This document shows positions 1,915 through 7,115 of a stretch of DNA of 12,045 nucleotides, in pieces; position 1 is the stretch's first letter, and each line of letters opens with the position of its first letter. The DNA comes from a virus. The position numbers and the translations under genes are program-made. The notes below the pieces were generated by a model, which saw only the letters and a program-made list of their open reading frames with translations, had not been told where the DNA came from and ran no database searches. Where the stretch lies: UHGV virus genome UHGV-0169025, one strand, 5' to 3'.

Positions 1915-3279
1915 ATGGCTACGTGGCAACAGGGTATTAATTCTGGTGGTTTTCTGGCTGGCATTGGTGCGCAAAACGAGAATGCGCCAAAGGCAAGCGA
2001 CATTAACGCAACGCTTGGTCTGATCCGCGAAAACAATGAACTAGCTCGCTCAGGTGCAAATAACGTTGGCCTGACCGCCTTACGTGGTCTGGCTGGAGTT
2101 GCTGATATTTATAAGCAGGAGCAGCAACAGAAAGCTATTAGGGCGTTCAATAAGGTTCACGCTGATGCATGGGCTTCTGGTGATCCATCGGGACTATTTA
2201 AGTTTGCCCAGGAAAATCCAGCGTTTGTTGCACAGGCACAACAGGCGTTTTCCGGTCTTAATGAGCAGCAACGCAACGATATGGGCGATTTAGCCATGAG
2301 GGCTAACGTCGCTCTTTCTCAGGGACCGGAAGCCTACAGTAAATTCATTACTGACAACAAGGACAGGTTAAATCGCGTTGGTGCTAATGCTGACTGGATG
2401 ATTCAGACAGGTATCCAGAATCCAGAGCAGCTATCACACATGCTGACTACTATGTCTATCGGTGCGCTTGGACCAGAAAAGGCGTTTGCTGTTCAGGATA
2501 AGATGGCTGGTCGTGAAATTGACCGAGGCAGGCTGGCAGAGACAATCCGCAGCAATCAGGCTGGCGAGGCGCTAACAGCGCGTGGTCAGAATATCACGAT
2601 GCGCGGTCAGGATTTATCGATGCAGAGAGCATCAATGAAAGGGGCGGTTGGGAATAATGAGCGTACAGTTCAGTTAGCAGATGGCAGAACTGTAACGGTA
2701 GGCGGGAAGCTTCACGGCGCTGGGGCTAATGCGTTCTACGAAGGTATCGACAACGAGGGGAATATGGTTCGCGTTCCTGCTGGCTCTATTGCCGCTCCGG
2801 CTACATCGGCAGCAAGCGCGCAGAATTACACAATGAAGAAAGATCTTGATGCAATTTCTGGTGCATCAATTGACGATCTTGGCTTCATGACTGGCATTAC
2901 AGGCTCTTCAGGTTCTCCTGCTCTTGGTGCAGATATTCGTAGCCGTGCATCTGGTGGTGATCAGAGGAAACTATACAACGCTGCACAGCGAATCCAAGGA
3001 AAGATGCAGAATCAGGGCATTGCAGCAGCCAGAGACATGGGGGCATCCGGTATCAACACCGTTGCAGAAGCAAAGATGTATTTTCAAGGTATGCCACAGG
3101 TTGATTTCTCAAGCCCTGAAGCACTGCAACAATCAATGCGCGACATTCAGCAATATACCGACAATTACAACCAACAATATAACGTTAATGTTGGTAAATC
3201 TCAGCGGCAGCAATCTCAACCTACACAGGTATCACAGCCAGCAGCCAGCAGTAACTTTTCTTCACTATGGGGTGATTAA
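1915..3279 (+). CDS. Ejection (E) protein, P22 gp20-like
   Basis: 454 aa (P22 gp20 is about 471 aa). SD AAGGGG 6 nt upstream of ATG 1915. Stop overlaps the next start (TAATG at 3277-3281). Assignment by position and size. Confidence 0.8.
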
Positions 3280-5144
3280 TGGCTAAAGCATGGAAAGATG
3301 TTATCGCCTCTCCACAGTATCAGGCGTTAACTGAAGAACAGAAAGCACAGGCTCAAGCGCAATATTTTGATGAGGTTGTTGCCCCTAAGGCTGGTGACAA
3401 ATGGGCTGAAGCAAGAGATCAGTTTTATGCAGCATACCCTCCGCCTCAGCAGCAGAAAGAAGAACCATCATTGATGCAACAAGCTGGTGATTGGCTCACA
3501 GGTGGTCAAAGTGCAGGGCAAATTGCAGAGCAGGCTGGTCGTGGTCTGGTAAACATACCATTCGACGTATTACAGGGCGGCGCAAGCCTGATTAATGCAA
3601 TCAGCCAGGGGCTTGGTGGCCCCAAGGTTTTGGATGATGTTTATCGTCCAGTCGATCGACCGACAGACCCCTACGCTCAAGCTGGTGAAACAATTGGCGG
3701 GTATTTAGTTCCAGGAGTTGGAACGGCAGGAAGCATGGCTATTGGATCACTGGCAGAGGCCGCAAATCAGAAAGGCGATTTCGCACAAAATGCAACTAAA
3801 AATGCCGGAGTTAACCTTGCCGCTCAGGGGGTTCTTTCCGCAGCAGCAAAGGGTATAGGGCGTGGAATTACTGCTGTTCGTGGCGAAATATCACCAGCAG
3901 ATCAGCAATTGCTCAAGCGTGCCGCTGCGGCAGATGTACCAGTTATGACATCGGATGTAGTTCCTCCAAAAACAAAACTTGGCAATCAACTGCAGGGTTA
4001 CTCAGAAGGAGTCATAGCTGGGACTGGACCAATGAGAGCCGCACAGCAGGATGCTAGAACCAAGCTTGTTAATCGCTTCACCGAAAAATACGGCGACTAC
4101 GATCCATCTGTAGTCGTTGATAGTCTAAAGTCAGGAGTTGCAAGGGAAAAATCGTTAGCCAAGTCAAAACTAAACAACCTGTCAGGAAGAATGGTTGGAA
4201 AGCCAGTTGATACAAGTGGCGCCATAAGAGCTATCGACGGAGCAGTAAACGAACTTGGGAAACTTAAAGGTGTTTCTGACACCCAGACCATTTCTGCGCT
4301 TAATGATTATAAGAATGCCATTCAGGAGATAACAAATGGAGATGATGCCTTTGAGTTACTTGATAAGCTGAGAACTCAGTTCCGCATTGACGTAAAAGGC
4401 GATCGTACAGTTCTGCCATCAATGTCGCAAACAATGGTCGACAGGGTCTACAACTCGCTAACCAATAGCCTTAGTAAATCTATAGCGAAAGGACTTAGCC
4501 CAAAAGATGCTTCAGCATGGAGAGCGGGAAAAGCTGATTATGCAAAAATGGCAACACATGCAACTCAAACGCGCCTTAAAAACGTTCTAAACAAAGGAGA
4601 TTTAACTCCCGAGGCTGTAAATACCATTGTGTATGGACAATATGGGTCAGATATAGCTCGATTGTACGGGAAACTCGATCAAAAAGGTAAAGACATGCTA
4701 AGGGCGGCATATATCAGCAAAATAGCTGACAAGGTAGGTGACAGCCCTCAGAAAATGATGACCGAGCTTGGCAAGCTGCAAAAACAAGCAAATGGTCAGG
4801 TGTTTAAAACCGTATTTGGTGGGAAGAACGGAAAAGAGATAGAGGGGATGTTATCTATTCTCGATGCTACCAAAAGAGCATCTGAGGCTAATGTTGTGAC
4901 GAAGACTGGCATGACACTCGCGCCTTTGGTAAGGGTTATTGGTAACCTAAAAACCGGAGGCGCGCTATTGGCTGGGGAAACAGGGATTGGCCTTATGTCG
5001 AGGGTTTATGAAAGCCCTATGGCTAGGAATGCGCTCTTACGTCTGGCAAACACTAAAGCTGGAACGCCAGCTTATGAAAGAGCGCTGAATAACGCCGCAA
5101 ATGCCATCAGACCAATACTTGCCAATGATGCAACTGATCGCTAA
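3279..5144 (+). CDS. Ejection (E) protein, P22 gp16-like
   Basis: 621 aa (P22 gp16 is about 609 aa). Translationally coupled to the upstream gene. Last gene of the + strand late block before the accessory region, as in P22. Confidence 0.8.
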   Translation: MAKAWKDVIASPQYQALTEEQKAQAQAQYFDEVVAPKAGDKWAEARDQFYAAYPPPQQQKEEPSLMQQAGDWLTGGQSAGQIAEQAGRGLVNIPFDVLQGGASLINAISQGLGGPKVLDDVYRPVDRPTDPYAQAGETIGGYLVPGVGTAGSMAIGSLAEAANQKGDFAQNATKNAGVNLAAQGVLSAAAKGIGRGITAVRGEISPADQQLLKRAAAADVPVMTSDVVPPKTKLGNQLQGYSEGVIAGTGPMRAAQQDARTKLVNRFTEKYGDYDPSVVVDSLKSGVAREKSLAKSKLNNLSGRMVGKPVDTSGAIRAIDGAVNELGKLKGVSDTQTISALNDYKNAIQEITNGDDAFELLDKLRTQFRIDVKGDRTVLPSMSQTMVDRVYNSLTNSLSKSIAKGLSPKDASAWRAGKADYAKMATHATQTRLKNVLNKGDLTPEAVNTIVYGQYGSDIARLYGKLDQKGKDMLRAAYISKIADKVGDSPQKMMTELGKLQKQANGQVFKTVFGGKNGKEIEGMLSILDATKRASEANVVTKTGMTLAPLVRVIGNLKTGGALLAGETGIGLMSRVYESPMARNALLRLANTKAGTPAYERALNNAANAIRPILANDATDR

Positions 5145-5165
5145 GGGTTGATGTCATGGATGTTG

Positions 5166-5804
5166 TTAATTGCGAATGGAATCGCGGAACTCTTTGCTTG
5201 ATAGAAAAGGATCTGTTCTCCTTAACTCATCATAGTTTTTATTAAACTTTCTTGCTTCACCTGGGTATCTGTTGAACAAAACATTGCAGAAAAAAGAGAG
5301 CAATAACTCACATATGAATGCTAATACCCTGAAAAATAAAGGTATAAAAAGAAGGGAAGGTTCATTGAAGTCTCTATTCCAAACAAAATAGACAATCATC
5401 CCGACATACCAAATTGATATCCCTATACTGATGATTGTTCCAACAGAGGTAACTACGATCCCGATTAAGTCGGACAGTCTGTTTGCCAGTAACTCATTTG
5501 AGTATCTTGCAATCATATACCGCCAACATTTTGCAATATCATCCTGATCTGTAGAGTCTTCTGGAATAGCTAGGCTTCTACATATTGAAGTAGCTCTTTT
5601 TTTCTCAACTCTTTTTGAGAGCCACCCATTAAAGAGATACATCAACACCTGCGTTGCTATTCCTGCACCAAGTGATATCAAAGACATCCCCAAAAATCGC
5701 CATCCTGGAGATAGTGACTGGTACTGCCAAACAAAAAAAATTAAAAAACCCAATGAGCCTATGACATAGGCTGATGTATCGCTATATATATCTATTTTTT
5801 TCAT
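5166..5804 (-). CDS. Predicted 4-helix inner-membrane protein at the sieA position; candidate superinfection-exclusion or abortive-infection protein
   Basis: Minus-strand ORF. Preferred start is ATG at 5804, preceded by SD AAGGAG (revcomp of 5815-5820); the ORF-track start at 5837 is a GTG. Four hydrophobic segments (AYVIGSLGFLIFFVWQY; FLGMSLISLGAGIATQVLMYLF; LIGIVVTSVGTIISIGISIWYVGMIVYFVW; LLFIPLFFRVLAFICELLLSFFCNVLF). Visibly AT-rich DNA. Lies directly downstream of and co-oriented with the Mnt-like gene. Confidence 0.65.
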   Translation of the reverse strand: MKKIDIYSDTSAYVIGSLGFLIFFVWQYQSLSPGWRFLGMSLISLGAGIATQVLMYLFNGWLSKRVEKKRATSICRSLAIPEDSTDQDDIAKCWRYMIARYSNELLANRLSDLIGIVVTSVGTIISIGISIWYVGMIVYFVWNRDFNEPSLLFIPLFFRVLAFICELLLSFFCNVLFNRYPGEARKFNKNYDELRRTDPFLSSKEFRDSIRN

Positions 5805-5854: not shown

Positions 5855-6106
5855 TTATGTGTCTTTTGGGATTCTATCCAGTAACTCGTTGGAAATTTTA
5901 TCAAGTAAAGATTTTATTTGTTTAAGATCTAATGATTTGTCTACTGATGAGACGTCATATGATAACGCATCCTCAAGAATTTGAACTATCTCTGAGTTCA
6001 TAGATCGACCGTTTCGTTTAGCCCTTTCCGCAATAGCACTACGCATGCCGTCAGGCATTCTAACCGTAAATCTTTCTATGAAATTTGATTCGTCTTTTTC
6101 TGACAT
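5855..6106 (-). CDS. Ribbon-helix-helix repressor, Arc/Mnt family (Mnt-like, positional mnt equivalent)
   Basis: RHH signature FTVRMPDGMRSAIAERAKRNGRSMNSEIVQILEDAL resembles the Mnt/Arc N-terminal fold (NGRSMNSE...Q...DAL). Start chosen at ATG 6106 (MSEKDESNF...) so the beta-strand sits near the N-terminus; the longer ORF-track start (ATG 6151/6154) adds a hydrophobic MMLLCFLLLICLANKK extension that looks unlikely. Divergent from the Arc-like gene as in P22 immI. Confidence 0.7.
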   Translation of the reverse strand: MSEKDESNFIERFTVRMPDGMRSAIAERAKRNGRSMNSEIVQILEDALSYDVSSVDKSLDLKQIKSLLDKISNELLDRIPKDT

Positions 6107-6155
6107 TTTCTTATTCGCAAGGCATATGAGCAATAAAAAACACAGTAGCATCATA

Positions 6156-6215
6156 TTGACATTATGAGCAATGGCATCATAATGGTGTCATGACATCATG
6201 GTGATGTCATTATGA
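6156..6215. promoter_or_regulatory. Divergent overlapping sigma70-like promoters (Pant-like rightward, Pmnt-like leftward) with palindromic operators
   Basis: Plus strand: TTGACA (6156-6161), 16-nt spacer, CATAAT (6178-6183). Minus strand: TGACAC (revcomp of 6184-6189), 18-nt spacer, CATAAT (revcomp of 6161-6166). Palindrome O1 CATTATGA-N9-TCATAATG (6160-6184) covers both core promoters. Perfect palindrome O2 ATGACATCA-TGG-TGATGTCAT (6190-6210) sits at the predicted rightward transcription start. A third CATTATGA copy is at 6208-6215. Confidence 0.5.
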
Positions 6216-6226
6216 CGGAGATATTG

Positions 6227-6403
6227 ATGATGAGCGATGTTCTTTACAGTGGTCGTAAAAGTCAGAGTTTCCAGCTTCGTTTGCCAGCGCGAATGAAGGA
6301 GGAGATCAGACGCGTAGCTGAAATGGATGGAATTTCTATCAACTCTGCGATTGTGCAGCGACTGGCTAAAAGCCTGAGAGAGGAAAGAGTTAATGCCCAG
6401 TAA
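6227..6403 (+). CDS. arc: Ribbon-helix-helix repressor, Arc-like
   Basis: 58 aa from ATG 6227 (SD GGAG at 6217-6220, 6-nt spacer); ORF-track start 6212 and ATG 6230 are alternatives. FQLRLPARMKEEIRRVAEMDGISINSAIVQRLAKSL resembles P22 Arc (FNLRWPREVLDLVRKVAEENGRSVNSEIYQRV). First gene of the rightward operon, as in P22. Confidence 0.75.
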   Translation: MMSDVLYSGRKSQSFQLRLPARMKEEIRRVAEMDGISINSAIVQRLAKSLREERVNAQ

Positions 6404-6476
6404 AAATAGTGAAGCCCGGCAGTGCGCGAACACAAACCGGGCCTCTATGTCAGTAACCGTATGCAAGGAAACTAAC
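6404..6476 (-). ncRNA. Candidate sar-like antisense RNA across the arc/ant-like intercistronic region
   Basis: Minus-strand promoter-like elements inside the first codons of the downstream gene: TTGGAA (revcomp of 6507-6512), 18-nt spacer, TACAAT (revcomp of 6483-6488), predicting a start near 6475. A GC hairpin (GCCCGG 6414-6419 / CCGGGC 6437-6442), read on the minus strand, is followed by TTCACTATTTTTA. The transcript would be about 70 nt and complementary to the SD (AAGGAA 6465-6470) and start of the 6477 gene. P22 has an antisense sar RNA at the analogous arc-ant junction. Confidence 0.35.
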
Positions 6477-7115
6477 ATGAGCATTGTAGCAAAATCAGAT
6501 TATAACTTCCAAGGATTCACCTTTAACCCTGTAACAGAGGGTGGGTCTATCTGGTTTACCTCCACCGAACTAGCTAAGGCTCTCGGCTATAAAAAAACTG
6601 ATGCCATCAGCCAAATTTATGCCCGTAATGCTGACGAGTTTTCCGACTCAATGTCATTGACCCTCAATATGAAGGTCAACGGAATAAACAATAGCTTACG
6701 TAACAAATCGGTCAGAGTTTACTCGCTCCGAGGCGCTCACTTGGTGGCGATGTTTGCTTCTACGCCCAAGGCCAAAGAGTTCCGCCGCTGGGTGCTGGAT
6801 ATTTTGGATCGGCAGGCAGAATGCTCACCGATTGCAAAACAGTTTACTGACGAAGAACTGGTTAATCTCTGCTACTTACAATTGTGGATGGAGAAGAGTC
6901 AACAAATGTGCAAACACATCTACCCAGGAATGAAGCAAATTGGTTCTGAGCTTTCAGGAAGGATTTACGATATTGCATATGAGACTCGCTACATGTCAGA
7001 AGAAACCAAGAAATCACTTCTTCGTGAAATGAAGAATCTTGATACCAACAATTTTGTCGTAAAGAACGCTCAGCCAATGCTGGCAAAACTGCGCGGCGAG
7101 GAATGGATTCATTGA
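6477..7115 (+). CDS. Phage antirepressor-like protein with N-terminal Bro-N/AntA-type domain
   Basis: Start ATG 6477 with SD AAGGAA (6465-6470, 6-nt spacer) is preferred over ORF-track start 6393, which overlaps arc. N-terminal region FQGFTFNPVTEGGSIWFTSTELAKALGYKKTDAISQIY...VRVYSLRGAHLVAMFASTPKAKEFRRWVLDILDRQ fits the Bro-N/AntA pattern as I recall it. C-terminal half not recognised. Confidence 0.7.
   Translation: MSIVAKSDYNFQGFTFNPVTEGGSIWFTSTELAKALGYKKTDAISQIYARNADEFSDSMSLTLNMKVNGINNSLRNKSVRVYSLRGAHLVAMFASTPKAKEFRRWVLDILDRQAECSPIAKQFTDEELVNLCYLQLWMEKSQQMCKHIYPGMKQIGSELSGRIYDIAYETRYMSEETKKSLLREMKNLDTNNFVVKNAQPMLAKLRGEEWIH

Follow-up and report, generated by a model that had tools for sequence, protein, structure and literature searches.

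The 123-nucleotide (nt) region between two divergent ribbon-helix-helix (RHH) genes in the virus genome UHGV-0169025 is probably a secondary immunity switch of the immI type that controls an antirepressor operon in a P22-like prophage of Escherichia coli. We analysed a 12,045-nt stretch of this genome, hereafter the window, in which the region spans positions 6107-6229. To its left lies the divergent gene of an Mnt-like RHH repressor, which by Pfam faces an RHH (arc) gene followed by the antirepressor operon. Within the region, a strong rightward promoter lies under dyad-symmetric sequences that we take as putative operators. The initial annotation of this DNA had proposed an immI-like switch between the divergent RHH gene and an Arc-like RHH gene with its antirepressor, and Pfam domains, genomic position and the P22-like layout all agree with it. 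It had also suspected operators unlike those of P22. A distinct operator specificity is indeed likely, because the window departs from P22 in its operator sequences and in its DNA-reading residues alike. Judged from sequence, the operator boxes are a different specificity within the well-known P22-type switch and not another kind of system.

Promoters, boxes and dyads of the probable switch

The rightward promoter is close to the sigma-70 consensus and invariant in position. It is Pant-like and stands where P22 has its annotated Pant, with TTGACA at 6156-6161, a 16-nt spacer and CATAAT at 6178-6183 on the plus strand; it matches 11 of 12 consensus positions in a promoter scan, just where the initial annotation had placed it, and its predicted start is near 6190. 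We compared it with relatives collected by scanning IMG/VR with each RHH protein and by adding annotated relatives, 147 divergent-RHH-pair loci in all with 77 distinct intergenic sequences. Two groups of these recur below: class A, 21 distinct intergenic sequences beside an Mnt-like reading strand RFTVR, as in the window, and class B, 33 beside RFN[I/V]R(LP). The promoter occupies the same position in every one of these sequences (21/21 class A and 33/33 class B, 54/54 distinct).

Six related boxes overlie this promoter. Each is 8 base pairs (bp) long and fits TRRYRTYA, with the core CATCA, and they begin at 6146, 6157, 6172, 6183, 6191 and 6202. The boxes pair 11 bp apart into three 21-bp dyads, which cover the -35 hexamer, the -10 hexamer and the predicted start (+1 to +21). 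Dyad 1 (GTAGCATCA-TAT-TGACATTAT, 6145-6165, centre 6155) joins box a (6146-6153) to box b (6157-6164) over the -35 hexamer; it is imperfect, and direct repeat D1 and the box scan support it. Dyad 2 (ATGGCATCA-TAA-TGGTGTCAT, 6171-6191, centre 6181) joins box c (6172-6179) to box d (6183-6190) over the -10 hexamer, fits CATCA-N3-TGRTG and is supported by direct repeat D2, 19 nt from dyad 3. Dyad 3 (ATGACATCA-TGG-TGATGTCAT, 6190-6210, centre 6200) joins box e (6191-6198) to box f (6202-6209) across predicted positions +1 to +21; in position it corresponds to P22 Omnt. The motif CATCA-N3-TGRTG occurs at two sites in the 12-kb window, both of them in the switch, against 0.10 matches expected.

The boxes are conserved throughout class A. 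Anchored on the -35 hexamer, the 21 sequences align gap-free and share a common pattern: TAGCATCATA-TTGACAT, then ACAATG(A/G)CATCATAATG(G/A)TG, then (G/A)CATCA-N3-TGATG. Box a reads TAGCATCA and box c reads TG(A/G)CATCA in 21/21, and box f reads TGATG(T/C)(C/T)A in 19/21. Box d is usually TGGTG (16/21), a CACCA-like form that resembles class B box c. The arms of dyad 3, CATCA-N3-TGATG, are kept across the class while the 3-nt spacer between them varies (AAA or TGG). Among the collected copies of the window-type intergenic region there is a single variant (L016, from IMG/VR), and it changes the central spacer base of dyad 3, window position 6200, from TGG to TAG with the arms intact.

The initial annotation had described the region as nested palindromes built from a repeated 8-9-mer. 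Direct reading and a repeat search located every motif it listed: palindrome 1, with fully (100%) complementary 8-nt arms (CATTATGA at 6160-6167, N9, TCATAATG at 6177-6184); palindrome 2, identical with dyad 3, with 9-nt arms at 6190-6198 and 6202-6210 that are 100% complementary around a 3-nt spacer; a third copy of CATTATGA at 6208-6215; and the embedded palindrome GTCATGAC at 6187-6194. The repeats are real, but six TRRYRTYA boxes in three 21-bp dyads describe the region better. The left arm of palindrome 1 (...ATGA, 6164-6167) is found only in the window lineage. It is missing from 19/19 other distinct class A sequences, which carry CATTACCC, CATCACCC or CATTATC(T/C) instead and keep the boxes; over 6163-6169 the class A consensus reads ACCCACA. 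The right arm belongs to box c and the -10 hexamer.

Chance alone can produce some of this symmetry. Shuffling the 123-nt region 20,000 times with dinucleotides preserved gave a perfect inverted repeat with a spacer of at most 12 nt in 8.1% of shuffles when arms of at least 8 nt were required and in 2.4% when arms of at least 9 nt were required; two such repeats at distinct centres appeared in 0.3%. Single palindromes are only modestly unusual in such CAT/ATG-rich DNA, and the pair is unusual; position and conservation are stronger evidence than palindrome statistics. Across the whole window, ATGACATCA with at most one mismatch has 13 matches against 4.0 expected, 4 in the switch and 9 outside it. 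Half-sites outside the switch include TTGACATCA-N5-TGATGCCAT in the tailspike gene (9008-9030), TGATGCCATCA within ant (6599-6609), and ATGCCATCA with a perfect ATGACATCA at the end of the gp16-like gene (5101-5157); each of these may be a chance match.

The position of the leftward promoter is ambiguous: at least two candidates exist, neither of them strong. The initial annotation had proposed TGACAC-N18-CATAAT, and the letters are present on the minus strand (TGACAC from 6190 to 6185, 18 nt, CATAAT from 6166 to 6161), but they do not establish a promoter. In that register TGACAC matches TTGACA at 1/6 positions; the better hexamer, ATGACA (6191 to 6186), lies one base outward and imposes a 19-nt spacer. 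This candidate B (6161-6191, N19, predicted start near 6154) is present in only 8/21 class A sequences, although its -10 hexamer corresponds exactly in position to the annotated -10 of P22 Pmnt. A promoter scan with spacers of 16-18 nt listed instead candidate A on the minus strand (6150-6177), composed of ATGCCA (6177 to 6172), N16 and TATGAT (6155 to 6150), a 9/12 match with a predicted start near 6143. Candidate A, in the form ATG(C/T)CA-16-TATGAT, is present in 21/21 class A sequences, a conservation confounded with constraint from box a and the -35 hexamer.

Covariation with the reading strand and mosaic boundaries

Box sequence changes with the reading strand of the divergent RHH protein. 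CATCA boxes stand at the same positions in 21/21 distinct sequences beside the RFTVR strand, and CACCA/AACCA boxes stand at homologous positions in 33/33 distinct sequences beside RFN[I/V]R. Copies of CATCA per region average 4.9 in class A and 0.85 in class B, and copies of ACCAA average 0.14 and 3.1. Class B, whose members include E. coli 55989, Salmonella phage Oslo and Klebsiella phage KP12, has the same promoter and the same six box positions. Its boxes read TAGCACCA, TGGTG(C/T)TA (also TGGTKCTA), TGGTT(N)TA, TAGAACCA and TGGTATCA/TGACACCA; where class B modules have TAGCACCA, TGGTKCTA and TAGAACCA, the window has TRRCATCA. Class B Mnt-like proteins, with the strand RFN[I/V]RLP, carry C-terminal domains longer than and different from that of the window protein. 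Their Arc partners are 84-95% identical to the window Arc, and in the 55989 type the arc-sar-ant DNA is near-identical.

Other reading strands come with other repeats. KFNLRFP accompanies TGGTGCCA/TGGCACCA or GGGGCCAA/TTGGCCCC, KFMVRFP accompanies GTGACAT-C-ATGTCAC, PFGLRMP accompanies CACGGTG...CACCGTG, and the P22 strand HFNFRMP accompanies GGTCCAC-G-GTGGACC. Such covariation is what a divergent RHH protein that reads the boxes should produce. It counts as supporting evidence and not as proof, because the reading head and the boxes adjoin in the DNA and linkage contributes.

Similarity to the 55989-type module (L005) is strongly uneven along the locus. The window is 97-100% identical to it over a segment that opens near 6243 and takes in arc, the arc-ant spacer and the start of ant, and 70-87% identical in the helices of the Mnt-like gene (5973-6047). 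Identity is 33-60% over about 6060-6230, the segment that holds the Mnt-like N-terminal arm, the reading strand and the operators. The mosaic breakpoints against E. coli 55989, near 6060 and 6230, are sharp, and the C-terminal domains of the two Mnt-like proteins are unrelated.

Two putative repressors, a working model and its rivals

The Mnt-like protein shares its DNA-binding domain with P22 Mnt and little else. Its gene (5855-6106, minus strand) encodes 83 amino acids (aa) with an N-terminal RHH domain, recognised by Pfam (Arc, E=1.6e-17) and by BLASTP, and with the reading strand ERFTVRMP. BLASTP aligns only residues 12-49 with P22 Mnt, at 55% identity; the C-terminal part is unrelated, and a tetramerisation domain of the P22 Mnt type is absent. 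The label Mnt-like in the initial annotation thus fits the RHH domain and not the rest of the protein, and the full-length Mnt homologue in the window is a third RHH gene (8165-8419, minus strand). Its product is 47% identical to P22 Mnt over 73 residues, the C-terminal part included. This third gene is divergent from the tailspike gene and does not stand beside arc. Its upstream region (8420-8554) has a dyad of its own, TACCG-TTT-CGGTA (8483-8495), kept in the E. coli ACN001 prophage and in MS1657 and with one mismatch in 55989; a search of the switch for this putative operator, as TACCG-N3-CGGTA, found no copy.

Translation of the Mnt-like gene starts at ATG 6106, the start given in ACN001 by the Prokaryotic Genome Annotation Pipeline (PGAP) and the point at which the conserved N-terminus MSEKD/MTEKD... 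begins. The initial annotation had raised a leaderless start at ATG 6154. We reject it: in 17/19 other class A sequences this codon either lies out of frame or runs into a stop, it would add a hydrophobic extension of 16 residues, and PGAP and the homologues alike start at 6106. RefSeq/PGAP flags the ACN001 gene (L001 6111-6257, window 5960-6106) as a pseudogene 'missing C-terminus'. The open reading frame is intact in the window and conserved in 20 IMG/VR copies; the probable cause of the flag is the unusual C-terminal domain, not genuine decay.

Both window proteins resemble RHH repressors of known structure in sequence and differ from them in the DNA-reading residues. They match P22 Mnt (1MNT), P22 Arc (1ARR/1PAR) and AmrZ (3QOQ) across the RHH domain, with E values of only 1e-5 to 1e-8, and their base-contacting strand residues are different. 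The aligned strand positions contact bases in P22 Arc and Mnt; in the Arc-operator structure, Arc does so with Gln9, Asn11 and Arg13. At these positions the Mnt-like protein has R-T-R where P22 Mnt has H-N-R, and the Arc-like protein has S-Q-R (Ser, Gln, Arg) where P22 Arc has Q-N-R.

The Arc-like protein is a small single-domain RHH protein encoded by the first gene of the ant operon (6230-6403, plus strand, PGAP start). It has 57 aa, where the P22 type has about 53, a Pfam Arc domain (E=9e-12), 42% identity to P22 Arc and the reading strand SFQLRLP. Among the compared relatives, we found no intergenic element that covaries with the Arc strands (SFQ, AFN, VFN, SFL, GVM, KLN, NFM). Two candidate Arc sites were rejected: paired AWTGG motifs at a distance of 11 bp are consistent in classes A and B and fail in the other classes, and the conserved GGTG that precedes the -10 hexamer in classes B and C could just as well belong to an extended -10 (TGn). 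A weak lead is box c, which reads TGACATCA with ND/NE-type Arc and TGGCATCA with other Arc types (16 vs 5) and may reflect linkage. The Arc-like protein may read features common to the box classes; two substitutions in its N-terminal arm, S2K and S7T, may matter; and the lineage-specific palindrome at 6160-6184 may be a newly made Arc site.

From the observed sequence features, their conservation and their covariation, together with the P22 paradigm that goes back to Sauer, Susskind, Youderian and colleagues (cited in PMC2629481), we infer binding, repression and transcription starts along the following lines. The strong rightward promoter would drive the arc-like gene and then ant. The divergent Mnt-like protein (RFTVRMP) most likely binds the boxes as dimers that sit on neighbouring boxes; its best site would be the perfect dyad 3 (6190-6210), followed by dyads 2 and 1. 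In a lysogen, its binding would occlude RNA polymerase and keep ant off, as Mnt does at Omnt in P22. Upon infection, the rightward promoter would fire until Arc-like protein accumulates and shuts it off late, with dyad 2 over the -10 hexamer and the lineage-specific palindrome as candidate sites, and a sar-like RNA would limit translation of ant. The Mnt-like gene would be transcribed from a weak leftward promoter overlapping the rightward one, with its -10 hexamer at 6150-6155 or 6161-6166, and this promoter would likely gain from repression of the rightward promoter, as in P22.

Several points weigh against this account. The covariation could in part reflect physical linkage of the reading head with its neighbouring DNA. 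The box pattern TRRYRTYA was defined post hoc, after the data had been viewed, and its statistics (0.36 matches per 123 nt over the 12-kb window; 0/5000 shuffles reaching six) should be read with that in mind. The Mnt-like protein lacks the P22 Mnt tetramerisation domain, and dimer-of-dimers binding is therefore an assumption. An Arc protein identical at 54/57 residues, with an identical reading strand, occurs with another box class in the 55989 type; a simple scheme with a single operator for each protein does not easily accommodate such pairing of near-identical Arcs with two box classes. In Kapi1, an E. coli P22-like lysogen whose mnt-arc-ant locus differs from that of P22, mnt is reported to be unexpressed (PMC12922286), and regulation in these phages may therefore differ from P22.

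Other explanations account for part of the same evidence. The palindromes and repeats could be a by-product of CAT/ATG-rich composition and back-to-back promoter hexamers, with no operator function, since 8% of shuffles yield a single perfect repeat with 8-nt arms and CATAAT with its complement ATTATG makes up part of palindrome 1. This is very improbable: two distinct palindromes are rare among the shuffles, the box positions are kept over 21 diverged lineages while flanks and spacers vary, the box sequence changes together with the reading strand, and the layout matches the experimentally defined P22 operators. A closer rival keeps operator function and divides it between two separate P22-like sites, an Arc-type operator at 6160-6184 between the hexamers and an Mnt-type operator at 6190-6210, with overlapping divergent promoters and a leftward start near 6154. 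Both palindromes are perfect, their positions match P22 Oarc and Omnt, and a leftward -10 CATAAT (6166-6161) sits at the position of the P22 Pmnt -10. Moreover, the left arm of palindrome 1 is derived in exactly the lineage that has the SQSF...PARM Arc variant and could be part of a newly evolved Arc site. We nevertheless regard this arrangement as unlikely. The other 19 distinct class A sequences do without the left arm, among them L122, which shares SQSFQLRLP, and the 55989 module has no such palindrome beside a 95%-identical Arc. Box c and the -10 hexamer account for the whole of the right arm, and the leftward -35 either matches at one position in the proposed register or needs the 19-nt spacer.

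The constancy of Arc suggests yet another possibility, that one box family serves both RHH proteins, the Arc-like one being set apart only by the box pairs that it occupies cooperatively, and that the Mnt-like reading head alone sets the classes. CATCA boxes and CACCA boxes alike are found with the Arc strand SFQLRLP, box d of class A has its CACCA-like form, and in the KFNLR classes the Arc-like strand KLNLRLP has the K-N-R pattern of the Mnt-like strand. Against it, the two P22 proteins have unrelated operators, and RHH sheets normally read the central base pairs, which differ between the classes; we think the idea rather unlikely. An evolutionary version, in which one six-fold box family is read by two RHH repressors and specificity evolves by swapping a cassette of about 6060-6230 (Mnt-like reading head and boxes) while arc-sar-ant stays constant, is offered as a tentative proposal and is itself unlikely. 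If true, it would make the Arc-like protein tolerant of operator class, unlike P22 Arc. We favour an immI-type switch whose boxes are read by the Mnt-like protein and leave the Arc site among the candidates named above.

Genomic setting and comparison with P22

The switch belongs to a P22-like E. coli prophage. A 631-base stretch surrounding it is found at 98.7-99.8% identity in 24/5426 complete E. coli genomes, and the switch region also occurs in IMG/VR prophage contigs. The ACN001 prophage is 99.8% identical to the window, and in that strain the element ends with IntS beside a tRNA-Arg gene. A megablast search of a phage collection matched phage JEP4 only, in ant only; no isolated phage in that collection carries this intergenic region. 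Among the papers searched, none was an experimental study of this operator class.

The surrounding genes place the region where immI lies in P22. It stands in the late operon, with a gene-16 homologue on one side and the tailspike gene on the other, as judged from the PGAP annotation of ACN001, the P22 map and a Head_binding domain. The order begins with the gp16-like DNA-transfer gene (3279-5144), followed by a minus-strand gene at the sieA position, the Mnt-like gene, the intergenic control region, the Arc-like gene, a putative sar-like antisense RNA (6400-6477, minus strand) and the gene for the antirepressor Ant (6477-7115, plus strand; Pfam Bro-N and P22_AR_C). Two genes of no known function separate ant from the third RHH gene, and beyond that lies the tailspike gene (8555-10729; Pfam Head_binding domain). 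Between the Mnt-like gene and the gene at the sieA position, a terminator-like hairpin (AGCCTATGTCATAGGCT) with a T-rich tail at 5756-5772 on the minus strand parallels the P22 mnt terminator.

The putative sar-like RNA resembles its P22 counterpart in position and predicted shape. A Psar-like promoter (TTGGAA, N18, TACAAT, with TG before the -10 hexamer; minus strand, 6512 to 6483) lies inside the start of ant, a position analogous to that of the annotated P22 Psar. The 78 nt downstream of it form two hairpins, the second followed by a U-run, with a minimum free energy of -33.8 kcal/mol and z=-6.3, and the predicted RNA, running from about 6476 to 6405, covers the ant ribosome-binding site. 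P22 sar has the same two-hairpin shape (z=-5.3). An Rfam search for sar returned no family at threshold and only a chance-level symR match at 6408-6479.

The immI locus decides whether an incoming or resident P22-like phage expresses antirepressor and so induces prophages. A different Mnt/operator class would mean no cross-repression of ant between classes, which would affect superinfection immunity and prophage cross-induction. The pairs of reading strand and operator also form a natural table, with Thr beside TGA..TCA boxes and Asn beside TGG..CCA-type boxes, that could be used in the design of small orthogonal repressors. The basic immI architecture has been known since the 1980s. The gain here is incremental, and its most interesting parts are the table of reading strands and boxes and the apparently class-independent Arc.

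Comparison with P22 and its relatives shows a familiar plan carrying different recognition sequences. Villafane et al. 2008 describe the locus as an 'ant moron', highly mosaic in P22-like phages, with 'ten types in sixteen genomes' (PMC2629481). Their variants include those of epsilon34, L, ST64T, CUS-3 and others, and the window adds another type; their comparison is of gene content, without operator boxes or reading-head covariation. The P22 record annotates Pant, Pmnt, Oarc, Omnt, sar and terminators in immI. The window shares with P22 the genome site, the order from divergent RHH gene through Arc-like RHH gene to antirepressor, a strong TTGACA promoter under dyads and a predicted two-hairpin antisense RNA. 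The promoter is TTGACA-N17-TATATT in P22 and TTGACA-N16-CATAAT in the window. Oarc of P22 spans the last -35 base into the -10 hexamer, a position that palindrome 6160-6184 occupies in the window, and the Omnt dyad is centred 15 nt past the -10 hexamer where the perfect dyad of the window is centred 17 nt past it. Downstream, the window Ant has 212 aa, with 29% identity to the C-terminal part of the 300-aa P22 Ant, and is followed by extra genes and the third RHH gene. The P22 operators themselves, Oarc ATGATAGAAGCACTCTACTAT and Omnt GGTCCACGGTGGACC, do not occur in the intergenic region of the window, whose operator sequences are unrelated to them. Where P22 has two unrelated operators, the window has three related dyads drawn from a single box family.

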